DNA from: Candidatus Thorarchaeota archaeon
Lineage (GTDB): Archaea > Asgardarchaeota > Thorarchaeia > Thorarchaeales > Thorarchaeaceae
Assembly: GCA_003345555.1 (NCBI GenBank)
Contig: PRDJ01000057.1
Coordinates: forward strand, 60,001-92,000
DNA length: 32,000 nucleotides
Direction: 5' to 3'
Shown: positions 7,266 to 28,916 of the stretch, piece after piece
How the letters are laid out: each line of letters opens with the position of its first letter
Position numbering within the stretch: the stretch's first letter is position 1
Position numbers and translations under genes: made by a program
The notes under the pieces: generated by a model
Seen by the model: only the letters and a program-made list of their open reading frames with translations
Databases searched by the model: none
Told to the model about the DNA's origin: nothing

Positions 7266-7384
7266 GCCCAGGTAGCCAAGCGGTCACGGCGGTAGCCTGG
7301 AGTCGTCCCTCTACGTAATATATGGGAAACCGAAAGCTACTCTCCTTCTAGGAGACACGAGTTCGAATCTCGCCCTGGGCGCCA
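7266..7384 (+). tRNA. tRNA-Ser(GGA) with a ~32-nt intron at position 37/38 (7303-7334) and encoded CCA
   Basis: Acceptor stem GCCCAGG/CCTGGGC, discriminator G, then CCA. D arm GCC..GGC. Anticodon stem GTAGC/GCTAC with CT-GGA. Long variable arm TCTCC-TTCTA-GGAGA. T loop GTTCGAATC. Lies upstream of rps13, the usual archaeal context. Confidence 0.93.
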
Positions 7385-11384: not shown

Positions 11385-11740
11385 TGGCCTTGGTTCGAAG
11401 AGTAGCCCCAATTCTGTTTCGTCCATCGCTGTTGCCAAAGATGAACCTCGCGACATCAGACTAAGCCTCCTACCCTACGCCTCGGGTCGACACGTCATGG
11501 GCGTATTCTTGGAGTTGCTATCCAGTGTTGGGCCGTTTCAACTGTTCCAGTCAGATCCTCAGCGCATTGAACGTCTGCGCATCATAGTCTTATCCTGGCC
11601 GGATGTGCCGTTTCTGTTCCCAGAGCGAGACTCTCGCCTCCCTGTTCACACAGGACCGGCATCGACACATAGTTGGGAGCTTCCTCAGTTCCAGCTCCAG
11701 GGGAGCTGGTTCCGTTAGTCGCTCTTTCGCTCCAAGGCCA
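11385..11740 (-). ncRNA. rnpB: RNase P RNA (archaeal, ~356 nt, type-A-like with P8)
   Basis: Minus strand. Terminal P1 UGGCCUUGG/CCAAGGCCA. CR-I GAGGAAGCUCCCAA pairs with CR-V AACAGAAUUGGGGCU to form P4 with the bulged U. CR-II ACAGAAA and CR-III UGAAAC present. P3 CCAGCUCC/GGAGCUGG, P8 CCUGU/ACAGG, P9 GCGAG/CUCGC. AUGAUG...CUGA K-turn in P12. Confidence 0.93.
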
Positions 11741-15507: not shown

Positions 15508-16053
15508 TCATGTCATGCTGACGCCCATAGCGCGTTGAAGGATTTGCCCCAGTCCAAAGCCAACAAGCATGTAGAACCAAACATAATATAGACCGAATCC
15601 TCCCGCGGTAGGATAGCCTATGAGTCCAACCGCCCACGGCATAAGCTTGTGAAAATTAAACGGAATAACTGCGACTATCTGCTGTACGCCGCCGACTGAA
15701 AAGAACCCTGAGAGTAAGTAGAATATCATCATGAACGGGATGAAGAACATCAGAAGCGGTTTGCACCTTGCGCCCAGCATCTCCTTCTGAATTCTATCGA
15801 TGTAGGCCTTTCTTCTTCTTATCTTTCGAGCCAGTTTCTCGTCCTGACTCTTCTTTGCCTGCTTCACCATGTCTTGGTACTGCTTAATCTCCGTTTGATA
15901 TCTCTTCAACCGACGCACATCTGTGAAGCGTTTCATAGCCAGATTGCTGGTTAGGGTCACACCCATAGAGACGAGAGTAATCAAAACGCCCGAAAGCGGT
16001 GGTGTACGGAAGATCTCAAACCAAGATAAGAGAGCTGCGAACAGGTCCTGCAT
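15508..16053 (-). CDS. DUF106 / EMC3-TMCO1 (Oxa1-superfamily) membrane insertase
   Basis: TM helix, then a cytoplasmic coiled coil (RLKRYQTEIKQYQ...KPLLMFFIP), then TM helices with WFYMLVGF. Canonical position after secY-adk. Confidence 0.9.
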   Translation of the reverse strand: MQDLFAALLSWFEIFRTPPLSGVLITLVSMGVTLTSNLAMKRFTDVRRLKRYQTEIKQYQDMVKQAKKSQDEKLARKIRRRKAYIDRIQKEMLGARCKPLLMFFIPFMMIFYLLSGFFSVGGVQQIVAVIPFNFHKLMPWAVGLIGYPTAGGFGLYYVWFYMLVGFGLGQILQRAMGVSMT

Positions 16054-16059
16054 TCTCGT

Positions 16060-16650
16060 CTACTCCATTAGTGTTTGATATAGCTCGGTCGCAGCCGCCT
16101 CGACTTCTCCCTGACGATTGTTGATTATCCTCACCGTTGCTCCAGTGATCGTCCCTGCGGCGACAGCAGCGGCTCTGCACATCTGTTGATGGATCTCTAT
16201 CACCGCAACATCTTGGCTGTCACGTGCACGAGTGGGGTCCTCGCTCCTTCGCGCAGCAATCTTATCGGGTGCTGCTTCGACCAAGACTATGGTCTTTGGT
16301 CCAAGTGCAGTCACTACCCACTCAGGCAGCCCAATCAAGTAACCGTTGTTCGTTTGGATGAGCGTATGTGTGTCAACAATGATACGCGCTGACTTGGCCT
16401 TCTGAGCTATGCTCTGACCTGCCAGCTTCTGGATTTCGCGCTGCGTCTTTGTTGCCAGCTTTCTCATCTCGTCTCTGTCTTTCACCAAGCCCTTCTTGGA
16501 CGCGACTTCGAACATGGCTGTCCCAAAGTTCAGCACAAGGACTTCCTCTCCGTGCTTCTGCTTGACCATATCTACAGCTGTTGTGATTACGGTCGTCTTG
16601 CCGACACCTGGGATTCCTGTGACTATGACAAGGTTCTTTCCTTCGGGCAC
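16060..16650 (-). CDS. adk: Adenylate kinase (archaeal type)
   Basis: VTGIPGVGKTT, NFGTAM, RDEMRKL, VDTH, GYLIGLP, RRSEDPTRARD. Confidence 0.96.
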   Translation of the reverse strand: MPEGKNLVIVTGIPGVGKTTVITTAVDMVKQKHGEEVLVLNFGTAMFEVASKKGLVKDRDEMRKLATKTQREIQKLAGQSIAQKAKSARIIVDTHTLIQTNNGYLIGLPEWVVTALGPKTIVLVEAAPDKIAARRSEDPTRARDSQDVAVIEIHQQMCRAAAVAAGTITGATVRIINNRQGEVEAAATELYQTLME

Positions 16651-16795
16651 AAATATCAGACATCCAGCAATCGAGCTGTTCCGGGGGTTTTAGCGTCCCC
16701 GTTATATGTCCTTCTGTAAGAGGTAATGGAGAACGGCCTGTCAAGAACCCGTGTACGGACCAGGATGCCGAGTTGTGAGGCTACAAGTAGGTCGA

Positions 16796-18292
16796 CTACA
16801 GGATTCCCAGCAGACCCTCGATTCCCTCGCCGCCCATCTGCTTGAGCTGTTCCTTGGCAATCTGTTCGTAGTACTGCTTGATGATCGATACCATCAGCAA
16901 TATGCCCGTACCGCTTGCTAGTGCACCCATAACATCTGCTGCTGCTGCCAGGATGCCTATCAGAGCTCCGCCGAATCCCGCCACCACTGGGATGTATCGG
17001 TCAAGCAGCCTCTCAAGAACCTTCTCGCTTCTTCTGAAGCCCGGAACGATGTAACCGGAATTCAGCAACTGCCTCGATACATCACGGGGAGCTATGCCGC
17101 TGATGTCAATCCAGATTCTACTGAATCCCCAGCATAACAGAATGGTGATTGCAGAATAGATGATAACATGTGGTAAGCCGTCCCACTGCTGGAAGACCGC
17201 AAATATGCCCTGAGGCGGCGTGACGTATCTTGCCAGACCCGAGATAGCTATTAGTCTGCCGCTGGCGGCATCCTTTTCGAAGACTCCTAGCCAGTTAAGG
17301 AAGACGTTCGAGGGATATGCATTGTAGAGGATCTGGGCGAAGAATATGACGTTAGCAAAGAGAGCCTGCGCAAGGATAACAGGTATGTTTGACGTATAGA
17401 GCAGCTTGATCGGGTATTTTGCTCTCATGCCTCTGTACTTGGCGTACTGCAGAGGTATCTCCACTCGCATGGATTCCATATACAGTACGAGGAAGAATAT
17501 CAACAGAGTGATACCAAGCGATAGGAGACTTGGATTAAACCCGTCTCTCACGATTAACCAGGAAGCATCAACAGTCGGACCAGCATCGGTACCAATGCCA
17601 AAGAATCTCAGGATGTTCGCGATAATGGCTGCGATAATGCCTTTGGGCAACCCCGTACCTGTTTGAGGGTAGCCCAGCGGCTGGGCGTTTGTCTCGTACT
17701 GTGTGATATCAAACATGTTGAATATGACTTGACCTGCTACGTTAGTCATGATGAACAGCGAGACGCCTGATCCGAGCCCCCAGCCCTTCTGTACAAGTTC
17801 ATCCATCAAGATGACGATTATGCCTGCCGCAAAGAGCTGGAAAAACACAAGCACAGCTTCTTCGGCAGTGAGGGTGCCATATGCGTTCCCGATTATGTAA
17901 GCCATTGCCTGGAATGCTGTCATAAGCATGGCTAGCACTTTCTGACCGCCTGTAAACAGAGCTCGGTCATCGGGGTCGCTGAAATCCACATTGATTATCT
18001 TGGAACCTGAAAGGAGCTGCATTACTAGGCCTGCAGTGACTATTGGTCCTATTCCAAGTTCCATTAGCGTGCCTCTTGTGCTTGCAAGAATCACACGCAT
18101 GGCCCACAGATAGTCGGTGACGGTCGCCTGGTTCACCCCGTATAGGGGCATGTGGGACATCACAAGGAATACGACAAGTACCAGAATAGTCCAAATCGCT
18201 TTCTCTCGGAAAGACACCTTGCGATTAGGCGCCTTGACCTCGGGCATGACCCGGACCATCGGAGATAGGGCCCTTAGAAATGTAGATGGCAA
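16796..18292 (-). CDS. secY: Preprotein translocase SecY/Sec61alpha
   Basis: GTLMELGIGPIVTAGLVMQLL, GWGLGSGVSLFI, YPIKLLYTSNIPVIL, IPGFRR-like VPGFRRSE, GTGILLMV. TTG start. Confidence 0.98.
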   Translation of the reverse strand: MPSTFLRALSPMVRVMPEVKAPNRKVSFREKAIWTILVLVVFLVMSHMPLYGVNQATVTDYLWAMRVILASTRGTLMELGIGPIVTAGLVMQLLSGSKIINVDFSDPDDRALFTGGQKVLAMLMTAFQAMAYIIGNAYGTLTAEEAVLVFFQLFAAGIIVILMDELVQKGWGLGSGVSLFIMTNVAGQVIFNMFDITQYETNAQPLGYPQTGTGLPKGIIAAIIANILRFFGIGTDAGPTVDASWLIVRDGFNPSLLSLGITLLIFFLVLYMESMRVEIPLQYAKYRGMRAKYPIKLLYTSNIPVILAQALFANVIFFAQILYNAYPSNVFLNWLGVFEKDAASGRLIAISGLARYVTPPQGIFAVFQQWDGLPHVIIYSAITILLCWGFSRIWIDISGIAPRDVSRQLLNSGYIVPGFRRSEKVLERLLDRYIPVVAGFGGALIGILAAAADVMGALASGTGILLMVSIIKQYYEQIAKEQLKQMGGEGIEGLLGIL

Positions 18293-18340
18293 TTAACCGG
18301 TGGTCTCCTGCAGGTTTTCTGGGGCACCATCTGGATTTGG

Positions 18341-18348
18341 CCTTTAAA
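18341..18348 (-). promoter_or_regulatory. Internal TATA box upstream of secY
   Basis: CTTTAAAG about 50 nt upstream of the secY TTG, in a 162-nt intergenic gap. Confidence 0.45.
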
Positions 18349-18454
18349 GATAGTGGTGGTTGCGAGCATGCTCCATCTACGAACAGCTGAATCCGTATTC
18401 GACATGCTATCTCAGCACATTGCCACTTGGCTCAATGACTCGCTGTCCACAGTA

Positions 18455-18904
18455 CTACTCAGCCGGGAGGTCGACTGTGCCGCCCTTGTTCTGAATCTTC
18501 TCTCTCGCACCGGGAGAAATCGCCTTAACGCCGGTAAGGTTCAGCTTGCGCGTCACCCTGCCCGAACCTAGAACCTTGTCAGCACCAAGACGGGCGACAT
18601 CAACCGTGTAAGCACTTCCGGACTTGGTCGCGAGTCCTCGGCTAACAAGTCGGTCCAGAGACTCGTCAATCTCGCCTACATTGATGGTGGAGGGAAGTTT
18701 GAGGATGCTTTCCGGTCTCTTGAAACCATGCTTGCCAAAGTAGTGTGGATTGAGCTTCATGGTCCTCATTCTGTGATGTTTGTCAGTTCCGGCGTTGCCC
18801 ATTCCACCTCGCTGACCCGCAGCACGATGACCCTTTGTATCGCCATAACCCGCGGTACGCAATCCTCTCAATGAACGAATCCTTTTCGACTTCCGCGTGT
18901 ACAT
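18455..18904 (-). CDS. rpl15: 50S ribosomal protein uL15
   Basis: RGLRTAGYG, HRAAGQRGGMGNAG, YFGKHGFKRP, KVLGSG. Confidence 0.96.
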   Translation of the reverse strand: MYTRKSKRIRSLRGLRTAGYGDTKGHRAAGQRGGMGNAGTDKHHRMRTMKLNPHYFGKHGFKRPESILKLPSTINVGEIDESLDRLVSRGLATKSGSAYTVDVARLGADKVLGSGRVTRKLNLTGVKAISPGAREKIQNKGGTVDLPAE

Positions 18905-18918
18905 CGTCCGTCTCTCCT

Positions 18919-19461
18919 CTATGCCTTCTTCAGTCGCACTTCTAAAACACCATTCCGTAGTGATGACTTAGCTTCTTCCTTCTTGACTTTGGCTGGTAGT
19001 TCAAGTTCTCTATGATACGGTCTCTCTTGGTTACTAACGTCAATGGTCAGAATCTTGCCCTTCACATTGACCTTGATTTCGTCCTTCTCAACTCCGGGCA
19101 ATTCTGCAACGACCACTATTTCATCCGTCTCCTCGATCACATCGACAATCGGTTCGAGCTGAGGAGCAACAGGTTCACCGGGGTTCTCCGGGATTCTATG
19201 ACCGAATCTCTGGATGACCGGCTTTCCATCGGGACCTATGGTCATTGAGAATCCAAAGATAAGAGGGTTCAAGTCGTGTGGATTCTTCATCAGCTCATCA
19301 ATGAATCGTTGGTCAAACATCGACCCATTGCCCATTTGGCCGAGCATCTTCTGCATCATGTCTTCGATATTTCGAAGTACATCTTCTGGTAGGAAGTCTC
19401 CCAGCCACTTGCGCAGTGCCTTGCGTGCATCCTCATCATCTGGATTATCGTCCCAAGACAT
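18919..19461 (-). CDS. hsp20: Small heat-shock protein Hsp20 (alpha-crystallin domain)
   Basis: GFSMTIGPDGKPVIQRFG, EPIVDVIE, VVAELPGVEKDEI, LPAKV, NGVLEVRL. GAGGTGA SD. Confidence 0.95.
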   Translation of the reverse strand: MSWDDNPDDEDARKALRKWLGDFLPEDVLRNIEDMMQKMLGQMGNGSMFDQRFIDELMKNPHDLNPLIFGFSMTIGPDGKPVIQRFGHRIPENPGEPVAPQLEPIVDVIEETDEIVVVAELPGVEKDEIKVNVKGKILTIDVSNQERPYHRELELPAKVKKEEAKSSLRNGVLEVRLKKA

Positions 19462-19483
19462 GCTTGTTCACCTCAAGAACCTT

Positions 19484-19966
19484 TCATATCATACGTTGCG
19501 CGAGTTCGTTTATGGCTTGCCCTCTGTCACCTGTTACTCCGCCCATTCCTACTGGAAGATTCCTCTTCCCCCTGAAGCCTTTCTTGGGCGGAGTCAGCCT
19601 GAAGACCGGTTTCAAGCCTTCCATGTCCGAGATATCCGCTGTCCCGGCGACCAATGCCTTGGCAAAAGCGTCAATGGATTTATAGCTAGAGTTCTTTCTC
19701 ACGTAATCATCTGTCAGCATCTCGTTGCCGGGGATTCTTCCTCTCTTTGATATGAGAAGGGTCGCTGTGTTCTCGTCGATTGGTCCCCATGTGATGTAGT
19801 CCTTTGCCCTCATAATCATACCGCGAACATCAGATGTAAGCTTGATCACTCGTGCATTGTGCACCTTTCTGAGCCGAAGGTACCCAAGCGTGTCTTCTAT
19901 CTCCGGCCTGACTCTAGCAGGTCCCCTGATCCGTATCGCCAAGATGGGCTTCTCTTCCTGACTCAT
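19484..19966 (-). CDS. rpl30: 50S ribosomal protein uL30
   Basis: AIRIRG, DTLGYLRL, KDYITWG, KPVFRLTPPKKGF. ATG 19966 overlaps the rps5 TGA. Confidence 0.96.
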   Translation of the reverse strand: MSQEEKPILAIRIRGPARVRPEIEDTLGYLRLRKVHNARVIKLTSDVRGMIMRAKDYITWGPIDENTATLLISKRGRIPGNEMLTDDYVRKNSSYKSIDAFAKALVAGTADISDMEGLKPVFRLTPPKKGFRGKRNLPVGMGGVTGDRGQAINELAQRMI

Positions 19967-20643
19967 CACCCATACACTCCTGGGGCTGACCATTCCTGAG
20001 GCGGCAGCATTTTGTAGGTCTTCATGAGCGCATAGACATATGCTTTTGCAAAGTTTGAGTGCGTCCTAGATCGGCCCTTCGTAACGGACCAGACATCCTT
20101 CAGACCTGCAATCCTGAGCACCAGCTTTCCCACATCTGCAGTAACAAGACCCGTTCCTTTGGGTGCTGGCTTCAGTATCACTGAAATCGATCCGGCAGCA
20201 CCACTGACTTGAAACGGAATACTATGCATATCGCTGCATCTGCACTCCCACGATCCACAGCCTCTGCGAAATACAGTGATGTTCAGCTTGGCCTTCGCCT
20301 CAGCGGCTCTTACAGCGGGCACAAACTCTGAGGCTTTTCCGACACCTATGCCTATCACTCCTTGACCGTTTCCCACTATGACCGTGATTCGGAAACTCTT
20401 CAGCTCTCCTGAGTCCGATTGTCTTTGAACCAGACTGACGTCTGCAACCTCTTGTCGGATGTCGGGGAATAGGGCGTCTAATATCTCGGGCTCGCGTACG
20501 ACAAGATTCTGAGCAAGGATCTCCTCTAGGCTGTTGATGTGGCCGTCCTTGACCATCTGGCCCAGACGTGTCCTCGGAATCCACTCTTCCAGAGCTTCTT
20601 CTTCTTCACGAACTGGTCGGCGTCTTCTCTGTTGTCTGCTCAT
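19966..20643 (-). CDS. rps5: 30S ribosomal protein uS5
   Basis: WIPRTRLGQMV, VQRQSDSG, RRGCGSWEC, PAPKGTGLV. Confidence 0.97.
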   Translation of the reverse strand: MSRQQRRRRPVREEEEALEEWIPRTRLGQMVKDGHINSLEEILAQNLVVREPEILDALFPDIRQEVADVSLVQRQSDSGELKSFRITVIVGNGQGVIGIGVGKASEFVPAVRAAEAKAKLNITVFRRGCGSWECRCSDMHSIPFQVSGAAGSISVILKPAPKGTGLVTADVGKLVLRIAGLKDVWSVTKGRSRTHSNFAKAYVYALMKTYKMLPPQEWSAPGVYG

Positions 20644-20657
20644 CAGCGATTATCCCT

Positions 20658-21440
20658 CTACAACTTCTCACTCTTAGCCTTCTTGCCCTTGACTCTGCCT
20701 TTTCCTTTCGATACGAGTCTCTTTGGTCTTGGCTTGATTGGCTGTGCTCTAGGAGCCTTACGGATGGCTTTTCCTTTCACAGCTTTCTTGGCTAGCTTCT
20801 TGGCTGGAGCAGCTGCCGCTCTTGCTGCAGCCGCCTTCTTCTTAGGCTTGAGATCAGCGGCTGGAATGTCAAGGACTTTCTTCTTGACGGTCTCAAACTG
20901 CTTTGGAATGGTCTGTATGTCGACCTTCTTCTGGGTCAGCTGAGTGAACATCTTGGATGCTCCTTTGTCGCCTTTGAAGTGCTTGTACGCCTCCACAATG
21001 TGCTGACCCTTGATCCTAGACTCGTCCGGCAGGATTTCGGAATCATGAGCCACTTCCAGACCTGCATCAATCGCTCCCTTGAGTGCTGCATAGACTCTCG
21101 ATCCCTTGATTGGTGGGTTGAGTCCTAGATCAAGTACTGCCGTCTCAATGCCTCTTTCCTTTGCTCGGCGTCCTGCCAGTAGTCCTGTAAGATAGGCCGC
21201 TGGAAGGTTACCAGTTGATGCGGACCAACCGTAGGTTCCTAGTTCTCCTGACATCGCGGAGGCAACTGTTCTGTCGCCCACTATGTCCGCATTCACCAGT
21301 TGGACAATCATACTTGTGTTGGTCTTCCTGACTACAAGGCGAGGCATCCTTGACATCAGGAGGCGTCGTCGTCGATAGTAGTCAGTCTTACCCTCTCGGC
21401 GTCTACGAAACTTCACTCGATAAGTCGGGCCGTGTGCCAT
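20658..21440 (-). CDS. rpl18: 50S ribosomal protein uL18 with a Lys/Ala-rich C-terminal extension
   Basis: MAHGPTYRVKFRRRREGKTDY, RLVVRKTN, GNLPAAYLTGLL, VYAALKGAIDAGL. Confidence 0.97.
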   Translation of the reverse strand: MAHGPTYRVKFRRRREGKTDYYRRRRLLMSRMPRLVVRKTNTSMIVQLVNADIVGDRTVASAMSGELGTYGWSASTGNLPAAYLTGLLAGRRAKERGIETAVLDLGLNPPIKGSRVYAALKGAIDAGLEVAHDSEILPDESRIKGQHIVEAYKHFKGDKGASKMFTQLTQKKVDIQTIPKQFETVKKKVLDIPAADLKPKKKAAAARAAAAPAKKLAKKAVKGKAIRKAPRAQPIKPRPKRLVSKGKGRVKGKKAKSEKL

Positions 21441-21889
21441 TACTTCGCCCCCAGTTTGCGTTCTGTTATGTAGGTCTTAATATGGCCCGTATTCCTGAAG
21501 GCGTTGCCCTTGGCCTTGAGGTAGAGATCCCGGTAGACTCTGCTAGTTATCTTTCCGTCTGTCCTGAGCTTCTTCAGTTCCTTCCTCATTGGACGGATTT
21601 TCATCATCCAGCGGTCCTTCTTTGACAAGACTGCTGTATTCTTGCCCTTCTTGCCGCCCGGGCCTTTTCTCTGACCTTTGCGAATCTGATGCTTACGGAA
21701 TCTTGCCCTTCCTCTACTAACGCCCTGCTTCTGCCTCGCTTGGATTGCCCCCTCGTCTACCAAGCGGCGAATGTCATTCTTGGTTATTGCGAGAGAGACT
21801 TCGTCTTCGAAGGCAGGATCAATCCAGACTCTTGTTAATCCGACGTTCATCACGTCTGCAGCAAGACGTTTCTGTGTACTGAGCCTCAC
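21440..21889 (-). CDS. rpl19e: 50S ribosomal protein eL19
   Basis: QKRLAADVMNVG..RVWIDP, GVSRGRAR, GPGGKKG, WMMKIR, YRDLYLKAKGNAF. Confidence 0.97.
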   Translation of the reverse strand: MRLSTQKRLAADVMNVGLTRVWIDPAFEDEVSLAITKNDIRRLVDEGAIQARQKQGVSRGRARFRKHQIRKGQRKGPGGKKGKNTAVLSKKDRWMMKIRPMRKELKKLRTDGKITSRVYRDLYLKAKGNAFRNTGHIKTYITERKLGAK

Positions 21890-22626
21890 TTTTCATCTGC
21901 CTCCGTGTCGAGTTCTGAAAACAGCTCTTCTTCCCTAGCAGATTCAGGAACGCCAGGGTTCAAGACTCTAAGGTGCATCGTTTCAGCTTTCTTGAGGATC
22001 TCCTGACGTTTTCTCATTCCGACAGTGCCGCCAATTCGCACAGCATGGATATTGGAGTCAAGGCCTTCAAGCTGTCCGACATTATACACTGGGACCTCGA
22101 GATGCATTGACGGATGAATATCTCTGGCTGCTCTTGGAGTACGATACCCCGCACATACCATCGCAATTCGCCCTTTGCGCTTCTGCCTAGTGTAGCTATC
22201 ATTTCCGCGCACATTTCTCCACGAGTCACTAAGGCGGATCCAGCGATGTGCATTCTCGCGGCGGAATTCTGGAAGACCGTGTTTCTTGTGTTTTGCAATC
22301 CTGAAAAGTCGCATTTCAACGATTCCTTCCCGCACGCGTTTCGGGGCTTCTTTCTTCGATACCACAGCCGCTTTGGATACTGCCTTCTTCCTTGCGGCTG
22401 TTCTGGGCGCTTCTGCTTCAATCTCACTGGGCTCCTTTTTCCGTGCCGCTTTCGGTTTCTCTGGTGCCGCTCGAGCCTTGCGCGGCGCAGCTGCCTTCTT
22501 GGCGGTCTTCGCTGAAGTCTCTCGGACTTTGGCGGCCTTTGCAGGTGCGGTTTTCTTCGGTTTCTTTTCCCGATCCTTTTCCGACTTCTCGGCCCGCTTC
22601 TTTTCCGTCCTTTGTTCTTCTGACAC
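21886..22626 (-). CDS. rpl32e: 50S ribosomal protein eL32 with a ~100-aa N-terminal low-complexity extension
   Basis: PEFRRENAHR..RL..SWR..RG, GYRTP, IHPS, RIGGTVG.RKR..I. GTG start with AGGAGG SD. Confidence 0.94.
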   Translation of the reverse strand: MSEEQRTEKKRAEKSEKDREKKPKKTAPAKAAKVRETSAKTAKKAAAPRKARAAPEKPKAARKKEPSEIEAEAPRTAARKKAVSKAAVVSKKEAPKRVREGIVEMRLFRIAKHKKHGLPEFRRENAHRWIRLSDSWRNVRGNDSYTRQKRKGRIAMVCAGYRTPRAARDIHPSMHLEVPVYNVGQLEGLDSNIHAVRIGGTVGMRKRQEILKKAETMHLRVLNPGVPESAREEELFSELDTEADEK

Positions 22627-22638
22627 AATCTAAACCTC

Positions 22639-23199
22639 CTATACGACAGACTTGGTTGTCTCACCCTTTCTCTTCTTTAGGACGTAGATGCCATCAAGGA
22701 AGACACGCCTGTCCTTTGACCTCAGTCGCGTGGCATTCTGTATGTTTGCGGCGCTCTGCGAAACATGCTCAAGGTTGATGCCGCTGATAATCACATCATC
22801 TTCTGTTATCTTGGCTTGGACGTCTCCAATCAGCTTTGCCTTTCGGATGCCTCGTTCTCCTATTAGGTTCTTGATGATTACGTCTCTGCCTTTGAGGTCT
22901 ACAGTTATCGGGAAGTGCGAGAAAACGATCTTCATCTGATACTCATAGCCATGTTGCACACCGACGAGCATGTTACGGACGTGTGCTATCATAGTGCCGA
23001 CAAGGGCTCTTGCTTTCTTTCGAGCTACGTCTGTGCTAGCAACTACCTCATTTCCTTCGATTCTAAGGTGCGCATAGGGCTCTGGGAATGTTCTTTCGAG
23101 TTTGCCCTTAGGACCTGAGACGATGATTGTCTTTTCCTGAAACGTGACCTGGCAGCCAGTGGGTATCTCTATGCGTTTCTCATAGATGTCATTGGGCAT
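22639..23199 (-). CDS. rpl6: 50S ribosomal protein uL6
   Basis: VSGPKG, YQMKIVFSHFP, KNLIGE, VSQSAANIQ, DRRVFLDGIYV. Confidence 0.97.
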   Translation of the reverse strand: MPNDIYEKRIEIPTGCQVTFQEKTIIVSGPKGKLERTFPEPYAHLRIEGNEVVASTDVARKKARALVGTMIAHVRNMLVGVQHGYEYQMKIVFSHFPITVDLKGRDVIIKNLIGERGIRKAKLIGDVQAKITEDDVIISGINLEHVSQSAANIQNATRLRSKDRRVFLDGIYVLKKRKGETTKSVV

Positions 23200-23210
23200 A
23201 GCTAATCCTC

Positions 23211-23603
23211 CTAGTACACGTAGGCAAGTAATCTGCCTCCTATTCCACGGCTTTTCGCATCTTCGTGCGTCATCACGCCTTCCGGTGTAGTGACAATGAG
23301 AATGCCGTAGTTGTATGCAGGCAGGAATCTCTTCTCATACTTCTCGAAGCCGTCGCGCTTTACAGGGAATCTAGGTCTTATCACTCCACACTTGTTTGTG
23401 CGACCCATGAGCTGAATGCGGAGCCTACCTTCTCTGCCATCGTCAATCCGCTCGAATTCTCCGATGTAACCTCTGGCCTGCATGACGCGAAGCACTTTCT
23501 CGATGAGCCCTGAGGCTGGCGCCACGACTACCTCGGGCTGTCCAATGAGCTCACTGTTGTAGATGCTCGACATCGCATCAGCCAACGGATCTAGCAGTGT
23601 CAT
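23211..23603 (-). CDS. rps8: 30S ribosomal protein uS8
   Basis: [52 protein letters not shown]. Confidence 0.98.
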
Positions 23604-23619
23604 CTTCTCTCTTTGCCCC

Positions 23620-23790
23620 CTAGGAGTATTTGCGGAAGCCCATCTTCTTCGCTGTTTCCCTGAAACAGCGTCGGCACATGTTCAGCCCGAATCTGCGGAT
23701 GAGTGCCTGGTGTGTACCACACCTAAAGCAGGTTCTGGAACCCTTCCCGACCCTCTTGTGCTCTGTTTCTTCTTTCTTGGTTGTACTCAC
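23620..23790 (-). CDS. rps14: 30S ribosomal protein uS14 (56 aa, not in the ORF track)
   Basis: Manual translation: [59 protein letters not shown] start with GAGGTGA SD. Confidence 0.97.
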
Positions 23791-23801
23791 CCTTGCTCAC
23801 C

Positions 23802-24398
23802 TCAGAACAGATACGTGCGTTCCTTCTCCTTCTCCAGTATCTGGATGCCGAAGTCCCTTCTGACAAGCACCATGCTTTCCTCTGGCGTCACCCTGTGTCT
23901 ATAGGGGACCCTTGACCGCTTCATTCGTCGTCTCTTCACTCTGAAACCGCGGCGCTCAATGCAGACTGTGATATTCATCCCTTGTACACCGAGTTGCGGG
24001 TCATACTTGACATCCGGTATGTCTATGTGTTCACTGATTCCGAATGCAAAGTTGCCATCAAGATCCCAGTTCTTTATGAGTAGTACGTCATCCTTGGCCT
24101 TGAGTGCTCTTGCCAGGAACTCCCTTGCTTTCTGGTGCCTCAATGTCACTCGTACCGCAATCGGTTCCCTCTTCCGGATGCCAAAGTCTCGGATTGTCTG
24201 GTGCGCCTTGGACTGCACGGGTGTCTGACCCGTCAGGTTCTTGAGAATAGTAGCCGCCCGTTCGAGAGTCTCGCCGCCGCCCACACATATATCGACCACA
24301 ACTTTGGCAATCTGTGGCTCCCTCATTGGGAAGGTCTTCCAGTCGTCTATGATCAGCTGCTCGTTGGGTGAAATCATCTGTTCCTCTGAGGTGCTCAC
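23802..24398 (-). CDS. rpl5: 50S ribosomal protein uL5
   Basis: PMREPQIAKVVVDI, TIRDFGIRK, GNFAFGISEHIDIP..KYDP. Confidence 0.97.
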   Translation of the reverse strand: MSTSEEQMISPNEQLIIDDWKTFPMREPQIAKVVVDICVGGGETLERAATILKNLTGQTPVQSKAHQTIRDFGIRKREPIAVRVTLRHQKAREFLARALKAKDDVLLIKNWDLDGNFAFGISEHIDIPDVKYDPQLGVQGMNITVCIERRGFRVKRRRMKRSRVPYRHRVTPEESMVLVRRDFGIQILEKEKERTYLF

Positions 24399-25150
24399 TT
24401 GCTCTGGCCTCCTGTGGGACTTAGGCTAATCTCAGGTTTCCCGGAACCAACGACAAATACATACTCTGTGGCTGTCTGGACCTTGTTTCCGCCAGAATCC
24501 TGGAGGGTCACAGTACTGGCGTGAGTCCCGAACCTCTTGTTGATCGAGACGATTTTGCCTTCGATTCCGATGTTCTTTCCTCGTGACACAAGTGCATAGG
24601 CCCCCTCAGCTAGTGGGAGCGTTTTGATTATTCTCTGATCTGGAATTGAAACCTTGACGGTCTCGAGTGGATGATGCGCGGATGGCTTCTCACCCTTGGG
24701 AAGCAAGATATTCCGTCCGTCATGAAGAGTAATCTGCAGGCGCCCTCCGTTTACTATCATCTTCTTCTCTACTCTGCAAAGCTTGAAGCCCTTCTCATTC
24801 TCGCTTATGGTGACGAGTCGTAAACCTCCCTGTGGCTTAGGGAGCAGTCTGAAACTGTCCCCAGATGACTTAATCTCGATAACATCCATTATACCTACGG
24901 GGTAGCGGGGGTCTTTCCGTGGCTTCCCGTCAACGAAAACGTCTCCACTAGTCAGCATCACCTTGACCTCTCGCATATTCTCTGCATAACCAAGTGTCTC
25001 TCTGAGAAGAACTGTAAGTGTCATGCTGTACTCCTTTGGATGGGGACCAGAGACCGGCCTCGTGGTGAACTTGTATTCCTTCCTCTTTATTGGCCAATGC
25101 TTAGGGGCCGGCAGTCGCTTCAGATGTTTCTTCTGACCCAATCGTGTCAT
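24395..25150 (-). CDS. rps4e: 30S ribosomal protein eS4
   Basis: HLKRLPAP..W, GPHP, VDGK.R.D..YPVG.MDV, QITLHDGRN. Confidence 0.97.
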   Translation of the reverse strand: MTRLGQKKHLKRLPAPKHWPIKRKEYKFTTRPVSGPHPKEYSMTLTVLLRETLGYAENMREVKVMLTSGDVFVDGKPRKDPRYPVGIMDVIEIKSSGDSFRLLPKPQGGLRLVTISENEKGFKLCRVEKKMIVNGGRLQITLHDGRNILLPKGEKPSAHHPLETVKVSIPDQRIIKTLPLAEGAYALVSRGKNIGIEGKIVSINKRFGTHASTVTLQDSGGNKVQTATEYVFVVGSGKPEISLSPTGGQSK

Positions 25151-25537
25151 CTACTCACTCTCCGCTATCGTGGCAGCTCTGGCCTGGATGCGTTTCTTTC
25201 TTTCATCACTCAGTTCCAATTTGACAAGCATCAAATTAGACGGGTGCAATGGTACCCTAGCTTCTTTGCCATCAGACTTGGTAGTCGAGGCACCGTCGAC
25301 AAGCACGCGGATAGTGCGGTAGTCCACTCCGAGTACCTTTCCTTCAGTGTCTCTGAACTGTCCCCTCATGATACGCACGAGGTCTCCCTTCTTCACGTTT
25401 AGAGAACGCAGCCCGTATTCTTCTCTCAGCGAATCGTCTAGCCTGCATCTGAGCATGCTTCTGTGAGCATGCTGACCGGAATCACGTACAAGGCGTCGCT
25501 GTTTGCGGGGGGACTTTGGACTAAGCTTCTTCGTCAT
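25151..25537 (-). CDS. rpl24: 50S ribosomal protein uL24
   Basis: SKSPRKQR-type N-terminus, GDLVRIMRG, PLHPSNL. ATG 25537 chosen over the longer track start. Confidence 0.95.
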   Translation of the reverse strand: MTKKLSPKSPRKQRRLVRDSGQHAHRSMLRCRLDDSLREEYGLRSLNVKKGDLVRIMRGQFRDTEGKVLGVDYRTIRVLVDGASTTKSDGKEARVPLHPSNLMLVKLELSDERKKRIQARAATIAESE

Positions 25538-25548
25538 TGTACAGCACC

Positions 25549-25971
25549 TCATACTATCTTCGACGCTATGGCTGCGACACGCGGCCACATGATCGTGACT
25601 TCTCTTGCCATGGGACCTCTAAGTTCGGAACCTTGTGGCTCACCACCCGCCTTTATCAGGACTGCCGCATTATCCTCGAATTGTATCCAGGTCCCATCGA
25701 CTCTACGAAACGGTTTCTTCTGTCTGACAACTACAGCCTGCAGGACTTGTTTTCTCAGTTCCTGCTTGCCTTTCAACACAGAAACGTTGATGCGGTCGCC
25801 GACACCCGCTTTGCCAATCTTCCTCTGTTTACCCTTGTATCCTAGGACAGTTATCAACTGGAGCTCCTTCGCTCCCGAATTATCAGTACACAGAAGCGTG
25901 GCTCCGACAGGTAACCCTCTTGCGACCTTTGGAATATACTTCCTAATTCCTCTGGTGAGCTTCCTCGACAT
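25549..25971 (-). CDS. rpl14: 50S ribosomal protein uL14
   Basis: DNSGAK, AGVGD, AVVVRQKKPFRR.DG, FEDNAAV, GPMARE. Confidence 0.98.
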   Translation of the reverse strand: MSRKLTRGIRKYIPKVARGLPVGATLLCTDNSGAKELQLITVLGYKGKQRKIGKAGVGDRINVSVLKGKQELRKQVLQAVVVRQKKPFRRVDGTWIQFEDNAAVLIKAGGEPQGSELRGPMAREVTIMWPRVAAIASKIV

Positions 25972-25974
25972 TGC

Positions 25975-26340
25975 TTAACCCTCCTGATTCGTTGCAGGAC
26001 GTTTCACCGATATCACGACACTCTTGACGGTCTTGCTTATCGGGCGGCACTCGGCCACTCTGACTGTGTCGCCTTCATTGACCTCCATGCAAGGAGGCAA
26101 GTGAGCATGTTTGTTTGACTTCCTCCTCTCGTATCGTGAATACTTGTCGACGAGGCTTAGGTAGTCCTGCCTGAATGCTATTGCGCCATGCATTTTCGTG
26201 CTCGTGACAATTCCTTGCATGACCCGGCCTCTGACAGGGAGGCTTCCGTGGAACGGACAATTGGGATCAGTGCAGGTTTTCTTCGGGGGCTCCACTCCGG
26301 GAACGCCGATATCACGCACCTTGTCCTTGGTCTTGCGCAT
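25975..26340 (-). CDS. rps17: 30S ribosomal protein uS17
   Basis: CTDPNCPFHGSLPVRG, KYSRYERR, AHLPPC, ECRPISKT. Confidence 0.97.
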   Translation of the reverse strand: MRKTKDKVRDIGVPGVEPPKKTCTDPNCPFHGSLPVRGRVMQGIVTSTKMHGAIAFRQDYLSLVDKYSRYERRKSNKHAHLPPCMEVNEGDTVRVAECRPISKTVKSVVISVKRPATNQEG

Positions 26341-26342
26341 CT

Positions 26343-26624
26343 CTAGTGCCTCCTCAGAGACTTCTTGAGTCTATCTTCCGGGCGTCCGGTCAGCAATCGC
26401 CCATCAACATGCACGAACTCACCATTCGGTAGTCTGAAACTGAAGACACAAGCTCTCTTTGGAACGGTAATCTCTCGATTGGCCGTGGCCAGTCGGAGAG
26501 TCTCCTTGGACTCATCGATTATCGTACCATCTCTGCATACCAAACTCGGATCACGCGCTTCGACAACGTGAGCGCTCATTCCGATAAGCTCGTGCCTGAC
26601 CAAGTTCGAGAGAGTGGCTTTCAT
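26343..26624 (-). CDS. rnp1: RNase P protein component 1 (Rpp29/POP4)
   Basis: HELIG, GTIIDESKETL, VPK..CVFSF, L.GRPEDRLKK, in the canonical position between rpl29 and rps17. Confidence 0.93.
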   Translation of the reverse strand: MKATLSNLVRHELIGMSAHVVEARDPSLVCRDGTIIDESKETLRLATANREITVPKRACVFSFRLPNGEFVHVDGRLLTGRPEDRLKKSLRRH

Positions 26625-26833
26625 TTAGAGCCCTCCAGTTCAATTTCATGTTCTATCGTAAGCACGCGGGCTATTGCTTTCCTGACACCTTTGATCTTGT
26701 GAGGATTCTGAGTTCCTCCACCTGTTGCGAGTTCAATCCGAGCATTCGTGAGTTCGTTATAGAGCTCCTGAAGCTTCTTTTGTCGCTCAGGTGGGGTAAG
26801 CTTCCTAATGTCAGCGGACTTCAATCGGGCCAA
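26621..26833 (-). CDS. rpl29: 50S ribosomal protein uL29
   Basis: KSADIR, GGGTQNPHKIK.VRKAIARVLTI. TTG start. Confidence 0.95.
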   Translation of the reverse strand: MARLKSADIRKLTPPERQKKLQELYNELTNARIELATGGGTQNPHKIKGVRKAIARVLTIEHEIELEGSK

Positions 26834-26836
26834 TTT

Positions 26837-27748
26837 CTACATCTCCTCGTCGGTCTCGTCAAGTTCATCTGATGGCCCAGCTTCCTTACTGCCTTCTTCA
26901 CCTTGGGCCGTTCGGCTCTCAGGAGCGGATGGGCTCTCTCGTTCAGTCTTCTGTCGGGCTTTCTTCGGTCCAGTCTCCTCGACTAGGTCAAGTGCATCGA
27001 GTTCCTCGAGTTCACGAAGTTCCTCAATGTCTGTGATTCCCTCAAGGCTCTCTCCGACTTCCTCTGCTGCAGCTTCCGCTGTTACCGCCTCAGGCACTTC
27101 CTCGACGCCCTCGGCCTCCCTGGAAACCTCGACTACACCGGCTTTCTTTGGCTTTGCCTTCTTGACATGAATGACTCCCGGAATCTTTGCATCCGGTCGC
27201 ATTATCTTCACTTGGACTCCGATTGTGCCTGGCTTGAGCACTGCGAAGTCACATGCCTTATCGACGAAGAGATCTGCAGGCTGTCCGGTCTTTGCGATGG
27301 TGGCTTCTCTGAACTTCTGGTACCTTGCTCGTCTACTTCCCAGCTTTCCTTTCACGATTATCTCACACCCGTACGCTCCCGCGCGCATCACGCGTCTTAA
27401 TATCCAGTAAGCCATTCTGCGGTAACGTACACCATGTTCAAGCTGTCTGGCGAGCTTCGAAGCCATAACAGGGGCACTAAGCCAAGGATTCTCTATCTCA
27501 ACTACTTCTACCTGAACGTTCTGGATTCCGTATTCGTTCTCGAGCGCATAGGTGAGGTCCCTGATTTTTGCACCACGGCGCCCTATGACAACGCCAGGTC
27601 TGGAGGCCTGAATGACAACCTCGGTTCTCATGGGCATCTTTCTGATTTCGACGCCGCCATAACCTGCTGCGTTGAGTTCCTTGGATAAGAACTCATCAAC
27701 TCGCAGCTTGCGCATGTTCTGTTCGATGAAGTACTTCACTGCGGACAC
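26837..27748 (-). CDS. rps3: 30S ribosomal protein uS3 with a long acidic C-terminal extension
   Basis: AGYGGVEI, RPGVVIGRRG KH domain, GCEIIVKGKL, KPGTIGVQVKIM. Confidence 0.97.
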   Translation of the reverse strand: MSAVKYFIEQNMRKLRVDEFLSKELNAAGYGGVEIRKMPMRTEVVIQASRPGVVIGRRGAKIRDLTYALENEYGIQNVQVEVVEIENPWLSAPVMASKLARQLEHGVRYRRMAYWILRRVMRAGAYGCEIIVKGKLGSRRARYQKFREATIAKTGQPADLFVDKACDFAVLKPGTIGVQVKIMRPDAKIPGVIHVKKAKPKKAGVVEVSREAEGVEEVPEAVTAEAAAEEVGESLEGITDIEELRELEELDALDLVEETGPKKARQKTERESPSAPESRTAQGEEGSKEAGPSDELDETDEEM

Positions 27749-28213
27749 TTAACCCACCTCCTCCAGAACGATCTCTATGTGAGATGTATCCTCATTATAG
27801 GCTGTGCTTCTTCCAAACGCCCTTGGAATGAATTTCTTGTAGGTCCTTCCTCTCTGCGTCGCTGCATGAACAATCTTGAGCCTGTCGATATCAAGACCCT
27901 TATTGTCGGCATTGCTCTCTGCGTTCTTCAGTACTTTGAGAATCTGCTGCGATGCGTTAACTGGATGTCCTCCGGAAGGCCATTTCTTCATTCCTGCATG
28001 ATGTGGTCTCTGCTTCCGATGACGCTTGTAAGGAAGCCACGTCTTTTCTTCGATTACGCTCTCGAGCAGCTTGGTTGCCTTGTCGAGCATCATGCCCCGG
28101 ATAGCATTGCATATCTCCCTAGAGTGCTTGGGAGAGCACCGCATATTCCTGCCACTGGCTATCGCTGTCTTGTCGGGGTCTATCCCGAGTACGGAATATC
28201 CGTATGTTGGAAT
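27749..28213 (-). CDS. rpl22: 50S ribosomal protein uL22, apparently initiating at ATT (154 aa)
   Basis: The track ORF (28144) lacks the family N-terminus. In frame upstream: ATT CCA ACA TAC GGA TAT TCC... = (M)PTYGYSVLGIDPDKTAIASGRNMRCSPKHS. An in-frame TGA lies 9 nt further upstream, and a GTGAGG SD precedes the ATT. Confidence 0.9.
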   Translation of the reverse strand: MPTYGYSVLGIDPDKTAIASGRNMRCSPKHSREICNAIRGMMLDKATKLLESVIEEKTWLPYKRHRKQRPHHAGMKKWPSGGHPVNASQQILKVLKNAESNADNKGLDIDRLKIVHAATQRGRTYKKFIPRAFGRSTAYNEDTSHIEIVLEEVG

Positions 28214-28410
28214 CTTGCCTCACTTCCGGTGTGATTGTTATCCTGTGGGCACATTGACATCCGTCATGTGCTGTATCCGCTCGTCTTGGTGGTTTCAACG
28301 GCCACTCCAAGACCTCACTGGCACACGTCTACAGACCGTTCGCGCGAGCAGAACGAGAGGCCTGCACTGGCTCCAAGGTCTCGAAACAGTCGTTATCCCG
28401 AGAGCGACTT
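28214..28410 (-). promoter_or_regulatory. Long structured 5' leader of the ribosomal superoperon (candidate r-leader with K-turn)
   Basis: About 197 nt between the predicted TSS and the ATT. Contains a 13-bp stem (28302-28314/28377-28389), a K-turn-like CC-UUG-GA / GA-GG motif, nested helices, and a second hairpin at 28249-28271. Confidence 0.55.
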
Positions 28411-28526: not shown

Positions 28527-28916
28527 TCATGGATTGTCGCCGAATTCGTGTGTGACACGCCTTAGGGCAGCCGCCGTTACCGAGTCGTCAATCAAATCAA
28601 CACCCGACTGGGTCAAGGTCGCTCTCACAAAGTGAGTCCCAGTGGATAGCACATCGACAAGGCCTCGTTCCTTCAGTTTCAGGAGACTGGCCAGAATGAT
28701 CTGTGTCAATTCGTCGTCTGTCATTTCGAACCCCTTGCCCGGAGTCTGAAGTGTCTCGCACATCCTCAGGACAGCTTTTGTGCTGCTCAGAAAACGCCGA
28801 TTGCTGTCATAGGGATTTGTGTGCAACCAGAGAAGCACAATGAGATCGATAACGCTGACATTCATGTGCGGATGTCTCTCAAGTGTTCTCTTCGCAACAA
28901 GCTCGACAATCGGCAT
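28527..28916 (-). CDS. Hypothetical winged-helix-like protein
   Basis: C-terminal SLLKLKERGLVDV...RATLTQSGVDLI resembles a wHTH recognition helix and wing. ATG 28916 overlaps the upstream TGA. Confidence 0.6.
   Translation of the reverse strand: MPIVELVAKRTLERHPHMNVSVIDLIVLLWLHTNPYDSNRRFLSSTKAVLRMCETLQTPGKGFEMTDDELTQIILASLLKLKERGLVDVLSTGTHFVRATLTQSGVDLIDDSVTAAALRRVTHEFGDNP

Follow-up and report, generated by a model that had tools for sequence, protein, structure and literature searches.

Highly expressed ribosomal protein genes strongly prefer AUG as the start codon, and an AUU start, judging by other systems, should reach a few percent of the AUG efficiency. In bacteria, AUU is the start codon of infC, encoding IF3, in E. 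coli, where it is accompanied by translational autoregulation (Butler et al. 1987, as cited in PMC4705826). In archaea, aIF1 prevents the binding of an AUU mRNA to the 30S subunit of Sulfolobus solfataricus (Hasenohrl et al. 2009, as cited in PMC4705826; PMC6237735). In closely related prokaryotic genomes, a switch from AUG to AUU was observed for 1 of 61,358 ancestral AUG starts, besides a frequent flux between AUG, GUG and UUG (Belinky, Rogozin and Koonin 2017, PMC5622118).

The rpl22 gene considered here, encoding ribosomal protein uL22, is located on the minus strand of a 32,000-nt stretch of Candidatus Thorarchaeota archaeon DNA (hereinafter the window; the genome is referred to as G000), and has features in common with each of these systems. 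As in the case of infC, AUU is found on an essential gene of the translation apparatus, and initiation should vary with the amount of a start-codon fidelity factor. In infC, however, the AUU is a conserved feature and the gene encodes the fidelity factor, which closes a feedback loop; in rpl22, by contrast, AUU was found in one of 57 sequences, and the encoded protein is a structural component of the ribosome. Like the mRNA of the S. solfataricus 30S system, as it is outlined in the sources above, rpl22 represents a Shine-Dalgarno-led archaeal mRNA with AUU at the start position, but the former is a synthetic model mRNA studied in vitro, whereas the latter is a natural gene of an uncultivated organism, known from its sequence only. 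The switch described in PMC5622118 is an event of the same type, in which a single lineage has exchanged its ancestral AUG for AUU; in contrast to it, the present one is located in the gene that opens the main ribosomal protein cluster of an Asgard archaeon, and the ATT is backed by metagenome and metatranscriptome contigs of several years. The AUG-to-AUU switch is an already known, very rare kind of event, and rpl22 adds a case to it. The data presented below are, in our view, probably explained by a change of ATG to ATT in one species, with AUU still used as a weak start that is tolerated and has not evolved as a conserved sensor.

Start region of rpl22

Table 1. Positions of the features discussed in the text (window coordinates unless a contig or locus is given)
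Feature	Position	Strand	Basis or remark
uL22 (rpl22) coding sequence, 154 codons and TAA stop at 27751-27749	27749..28213	minus	Pfam, NCBIfam
ATT at the uL22 start position	28211..28213	minus (plus-strand AAT)	aligned with the starts of relatives
In-frame TGA closing the frame, two codons 5' of ATT	28220..28222	minus	
Internal ATG, Met24 (codon 24), first in-frame canonical start	28142..28144	minus	
Shine-Dalgarno-like motif CCGGAAGTGAGG, conserved in the family	28218..28229	minus	family alignments
Structured leader core, about 110 nt	28298..28408	minus	RNAalifold on 25 family sequences
TATA-like box TTTAAAA	28433..28439	minus	about 220 nt 5' of the rpl22 start
rps3 (uS3)	26837..27748	minus	GTG start adjoins the rpl22 TAA
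uS19	G000:C46:1965-2219 (L001)	minus	5.9-kb contig, unrelated flanking genes
aIF1/SUI1, single gene	G000:C57:100298-100510 (L076, region to 100678)	minus	about 8.3 kb past the window end
Loci with shortened uL22 calls	L073:701-1096; L074:701-1045		ATG and conserved motif upstream

The codons of the minus strand in this region are TGA (28222-28220), GGC (28219-28217), AAG (28216-28214) and ATT (28213-28211), followed by CCA ACA TAC GGA TAT TCC, which encode the conserved N-terminus PTYGYS, and the reading frame from the ATT onward encodes PTYGYSVLGIDPDKTAIASGRNMRCSPKHS. No in-frame ATG, GTG or TTG is present between the TGA at 28222-28220 and the ATG at 28144-28142. The codon reading bears out the original prediction that rpl22 has no canonical start ahead of its conserved N-terminus, and the same is true of two observations made along with it, that ATT stands at the start position of the family, where it is aligned with the start codons of orthologues, and that the 3' end of GTGAGG (28223-28218) lies 4 nt before it.

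The open frame is 156 amino acids long, and the same 156-residue frame is found in most family members. A start located further upstream, with the TGA being read through, was ruled out, since a second in-frame stop (TAA, 28240-28238) precedes the TGA and no start codon is found between the two stops. The rpl22 frame also contains a 9-codon ATG-started mini-ORF (28238-28267, minus strand) that ends 25 nt before the ATT; it has no Shine-Dalgarno site, is located in the variable part of the leader, differing across genera, and is present in a species of the same genus, G003.

Identity of the protein and the internal methionine

The protein matches PRK04223 with 188.4 bits (cut-off 137; profile positions 4-152 of 154, residues 6-155 of the 156-residue frame), TIGR01038 with 182 bits (cut-off 79.85) and Pfam domain PF00237 (L22) with 107.8 bits (3.6e-31). 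The archaeal uL22 NCBIfam models begin 3-5 residues after the ATT, and the full-length matches over curated cut-offs, N-terminal extension included, place the protein in the archaeal/eukaryotic-type uL22 family. Among proteins with solved structures, it aligns with uL22 of Thermococcus kodakarensis (6skf chain BV, 156 aa; E=4e-43) from residue 4 to residue 153, residue 4 being opposite residue 6 of the latter; the solved archaeal uL22 chains comprise 150-156 residues, and their alignment with the window protein begins at residue 4. Compared with this T. kodakarensis protein (L22P/L17e), the product is a full-length homologue and an ordinary protein, and the start codon is the sole difference. 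According to the model and structure alignments, the first 23 residues belong to uL22, and therefore the ATT occupies the start position. The gene is present in a single copy, as determined by a search of the 82-contig assembly, which is 93% complete.

An alternative would be a start at Met24, yielding uL22 without the first 23 residues and with the upstream codons left as a decaying remnant. Met24 is the first in-frame canonical start codon, and in many public assemblies, both of this species and of related ones, gene callers select it or even Met41. The predicted N-terminal tryptic peptide of the AUU-started protein is (M)PTYGYSVLGIDPDK, and a protein started at Met24 would begin with MRCSPK. 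The position of this residue argues against such a start: it is internal, since the Pfam L22 domain begins 5 residues before it, it is opposite Leu in the solved archaeal uL22 structures, and in several relatives it is replaced by Leu or Ile. Moreover, the sequence immediately upstream, ggcaggaat, offers no Shine-Dalgarno motif at a usable distance, AGGA being just 2 nt away. Codons 2-23 are open and differ from those of G003 by five synonymous and one non-synonymous changes, compared with 39 and 6, respectively, over the remaining codons, and from this shared pattern the N-terminus is seen as still constrained at the protein level. Taken with this evidence, initiation at Met24 is unlikely.

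The choice made by the gene callers deserves a separate comment. Public calls cut the Thorarchaeota uL22 to 131 or 114 residues in many assemblies (e.g. P0073, P0083, P0094). These homologues were considered as further examples of non-canonical starts and rejected, as the two of them with readable DNA have a normal ATG at codon 1. For the same reason the shortened calls represent a systematic gene-caller error, and they lend no weight to Met24 as a start. Thus callers of the Prodigal type truncate rpl22, often including ATG-bearing orthologues, while the NCBI pipeline treats it correctly. In particular, the NCBI protein of this contig (P0126, 154 aa) starts with MPTYGYS and differs from the translation only by M instead of I at position 1; it is recorded on a contig of 107,835 bases, which is exactly the length of C57, the contig of the window. 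It begins at the ATT codon, so the public annotation already places the rpl22 start there.

The ATT codon in metagenome and metatranscriptome contigs

The ATT was checked in contigs assembled from sequencing runs, all belonging to wetland metagenome studies. All sampled words of the stretch are present in four DNA runs from two studies, and about 30% of them in two RNA runs. In DNA run X1 (study P1, 2018), a 34.9-kb contig with a word depth of 13 is identical to the window across the region, including the ATT. In DNA run X6 (study P2, 2022), a contig covering 28061-28307 shows no differences, and the ATT is present. The contig from RNA library X7 (study P3, 2017), covering 27919-28217, carries the ATT and a single difference at position 28087 (Leu43 to Phe), and hence represents a second haplotype sharing the ATT. 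This contig, the only one from RNA, stops at 28217, 4 nt upstream of the ATT and at the ribosome-binding motif, not reaching the leader, and its end is not to be equated with the transcript end.

An error at position 28211, which the original prediction had marked for checking against the reads, is countered by the ATT in separately assembled contigs of three studies (DNA 2018, DNA 2022, RNA 2017), and the ATT is not an assembly error. The assembly itself may derive from one of the DNA studies; the remaining contigs are independent assemblies, and the three wetland studies may sample one site or one campaign.

A more general form of the same objection is that the ATT is an artefact of sequencing, assembly or consensus building, or else a minor allele of an organism that really has ATG. 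The source is a metagenome-assembled genome of 82 contigs, rare variants are lost in contigs, so that an ATG allele may co-exist in the population, and all three ATT-bearing runs come from the possibly linked wetland studies. Still, all three runs agree on the ATT, although they were assembled separately and belong to three different studies and years, the X1 contig does so at the depth given above with zero differences, and the RNA library carries the ATT together with a distinct linked variant, which makes this explanation very improbable. A degenerate pattern of the start region, allowing for ATG/ATT strain variants, had no matches in metagenome contigs, from which records close to the genome itself may have been excluded.

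Start codons of rpl22 across Thorarchaeota

The aligned start codon was read in 30 loci from species-representative genomes and 40 loci from the genome-contig collection, yielding 57 non-redundant Thorarchaeota sequences after removal of duplicates. The start codon is ATG in 52 sequences, GTG in three, ATT in one (this genome) and a shifted ATG in one, an outgroup sequence with ATG located one codon upstream of the aligned position. None of the 56 non-redundant relatives has ATT, ATA or ATC here. The nearest sampled congener, G003, with 95% amino acid identity of uL22, has ATG behind an identical motif, and two further congeners (79% identity) also have ATG.

As the relatives, including G003, have ATG or GTG, the ATT is not a conserved regulatory device, and the suggestion of the original prediction that it might be one is contradicted by the aligned rpl22 5' ends (0/56). 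The ATG of so close a relative as G003 bears on that reading and not on the observation of the ATT itself. Of the non-AUG rpl22 starts that the original prediction mentions as reported for some other archaea, occasional GTG (3/57) is found also in this set, while nothing beyond GTG was seen among the relatives. Judging by these alignments, the ATT is a rare start-codon mutation of a single lineage, unique to one species among those sampled. Since the relatives refute the conserved-device reading, no new regulatory principle is revealed by this locus.

Ribosome-binding motif

The motif CCGGAAGTGAGG is almost invariant across the family, and with its 3' end 4 nt before the ATT it constitutes a ribosome-binding motif at a working distance, as would be required of a near-cognate start. 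Within this region, GGAAGTGA matches the consensus GGAGGTGA in 7 of 8 positions, and the spacer is 6 nt long. The Shine-Dalgarno words of the genome were derived from their enrichment before starts and not from the 16S anti-Shine-Dalgarno sequence, as no SSU rRNA, which would provide the 16S 3' end, was found in the assembly. The words most enriched before G000 starts are GGAGG, GAGGT, AGGTG and GGTGA; the rpl22 motif is an imperfect Shine-Dalgarno sequence, containing none of the five most enriched 5-mers.

The congener G003 reads caccggaagtgaggcaaa ATG, and the window reads caccggaagtgaggcaag ATT; no compensating change in the motif or the spacer is seen between the two. At the level of the whole genome, 2.6% of the ATT codons lying upstream of the first canonical start are preceded by a Shine-Dalgarno motif, compared with the background of 3.1% and 13.8% for ATG, by a measure that is crude and low-powered and that a handful of genuine ATT starts would escape.

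Organization of the operon

The position of rpl22 at the head of its gene cluster, which the original prediction assumed, is confirmed by the 313-nt gap upstream of it, containing the TATA-like box (the nearest upstream ORF on the same strand ends at 28527), and by the location of the uS19 gene elsewhere in the genome. In all 30 relatives, uS19 is absent from the 1.5 kb upstream of rpl22, and thus the usual adjacency of S19 and L22 is broken across the clade.

The downstream order according to Pfam is S3, L29, RNase P p29 subunit, S17, L14, L24, S4e, L5, S14, S8, L6, with about ten more genes after L6 identified by ORF reading only; up to rpl15, the gaps are between -40 and +22 nt. The place between rpl29 and S17 is occupied by the gene of the RNase P p29 subunit and not by a SUI1 gene, in agreement with the earlier remark that sui1 is missing from its frequent place in this operon. 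The RNA component of the enzyme is encoded in the window as well, an archaeal RNase P RNA being found at 11391-11734 on the minus strand (145 bits).

It had been proposed that a weak rpl22 start could set the output of the whole operon. This is not supported, since rps3 and nearly all genes downstream have Shine-Dalgarno-like motifs of their own. In particular, the Shine-Dalgarno site of rps3, GGAGGAGGTG, sits within the 3' end of rpl22, and almost all downstream genes are preceded by a motif of the GGAGG or GAGGT type located 5-10 nt before the start.

The start codons of the operon are variable in general. Comparison of G000 (15508-28213, minus strand) with G003 (L075, G003:C11:41000-58178) shows that they differ in six of the approximately 20 genes, and in both directions: ATT/ATG in rpl22, GTG/ATG in rps3, rpl5 and rpl19e, and ATG/GTG in rpl18 and rpl15 (G000/G003, respectively). 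Across the family, the rps3 start may be ATG, GTG or TTG, compared with ATG in 52 of 57 for rpl22. On this comparison of sequences, the ATT is the extreme of a general start-codon turnover, at a codon that is otherwise well kept.

Leader and promoter

Of the 25 family loci, 24 have a TATA-like box between -210 and -227, and its position points to a 5' leader of about 190 nt. A promoter immediately upstream of the gene, which would give an mRNA with a short leader or none, was rejected, since the region from -20 to -40 is poorly conserved among the relatives and lacks a common TATA box.

The core of the leader has a predicted outer helix, in which 28393-28378 pairs with 28313-28298, and an inner hairpin, in which 28366-28360 pairs with 28336-28330. 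Its conservation exceeds that of coding wobble positions in all 25 family loci. Of the alignment cells, 94.8% are paired, and two-sided changes are seen in 16 of 25 pairs, while sliding the partners by 1-3 columns leaves 31-47% of cells paired and 5-8 pairs with two-sided changes; the structure was derived from the same alignment that was used for these counts, which favours it. A search of Rfam with the rpl22 leader yielded nothing at E<=10, and only one copy of the element occurs in the genome. The modelled structure makes the leader a candidate ribosomal protein leader, or regulatory RNA, of archaea. More speculatively, feedback mediated by the leader could buffer a weak start codon.

Initiation at AUU and dependence on aIF1

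The absence of an in-frame ATG, GTG or TTG, the alignment of the ATT with the starts of orthologues and the recovery of the base in independent contigs are the features of a near-cognate start. Most likely, translation starts at the AUU codon at 28213 by near-cognate pairing. We infer this from the unchanged motif and spacing, the constraint on codons 2-23, and the fact that Met24 has no usable Shine-Dalgarno motif and is not kept as Met.

The sequence of events that would lead to this state is as follows. A single-base substitution of ATG to ATT (C to A on the plus strand at 28211) would have occurred in the essential single-copy uL22 gene after the split of one Thorarchaeota species from its nearest sampled congener, and the ATT allele has persisted in the wetland population sampled in 2017, 2018 and 2022. 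The initiator Met-tRNA would pair with AUU at two of the three positions, with the ribosome positioned by the unchanged, family-conserved CCGGAAGTGAGG motif 4-6 nt upstream and with no rival canonical start codon nearby. The resulting start would presumably be weak and open to discrimination by aIF1, as suggested by other systems, and the switch itself would be nearly neutral or mildly harmful and tolerated by the cell. A weak AUU start looks hard to square with the demand for uL22, unless something compensates for it.

The expectation of a weak and aIF1-sensitive start follows from the blocking of AUU by aIF1 in the S. solfataricus 30S system. The premise of the original prediction, that aIF1 sets start-codon stringency in archaea, is sound insofar as aIF1 discriminates against AUU in that system, as reported in PMC4705826. 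What these data would imply is only the expected aIF1 sensitivity of the AUU start, and not that the start has evolved as a sensor.

The stronger claim is that AUU represents an adaptive, species-specific setting, by which uL22 and the coupled downstream genes would respond to aIF1-dependent stringency in an infC-like manner. Besides the in vitro discrimination just mentioned, this claim can draw on the presence of the ATT allele over five years of sampling and in two haplotypes, and on the aIF1 gene of the genome, which itself lacks an in-frame ATG, GTG or TTG upstream of the zinc-ribbon motif, a CTG behind AAGGAG being its plausible start. Several observations stand against it. A sensor of the infC type would combine a non-canonical start conserved in orthologues with a product that acts as the fidelity factor or exerts feedback on it, whereas the ATT is shared by none of the 56 relatives, three congeners among them, and the product is uL22, and since uL22 is not a fidelity factor, the infC-type feedback loop is absent. 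Moreover, the Shine-Dalgarno motifs of rps3 and most downstream genes, the lack of a compensating change in the motif and spacer relative to G003, and the genome-wide ratio of 2.6% to 3.1%, with no sign of ATT starts, are not what such a setting would lead one to expect. We therefore regard adaptive tuning as quite unlikely, the tolerated substitution with continued use of AUU being preferred.

An even broader possibility is that Thorarchaeota, and maybe Asgard archaea in general, would have relaxed or tunable start-codon stringency, with aIF1 translated from a non-AUG codon, fast turnover of operon starts, and AUU, together with the leader motif, supplying uL22. We consider this improbable. 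If true, rpl22 of this species would be a natural reporter of aIF1-dependent fidelity, and AUU could make uL22 a limiting, stringency-sensitive part of 50S assembly.

Under the preferred reading, a tolerated AUU in one species, the locus provides a natural case of an archaeal ribosomal protein gene, essential and presumably expressed at a high level, that has lost every canonical start and apparently relies on AUU. The leader with AUU and its counterpart with AUG from the congener form a concrete construct for the study of AUU initiation and of the aIF1 effect in an Asgard-type system.

As for the tRNA complement, Aragorn predicts 15-17 tRNAs in the genome, with a single, intron-bearing tRNA-Met(CAT). 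An intron-containing tRNA is also located in the window itself, at 7266-7381 on the plus strand, and is assigned by Aragorn to tRNA-Ser GGA.
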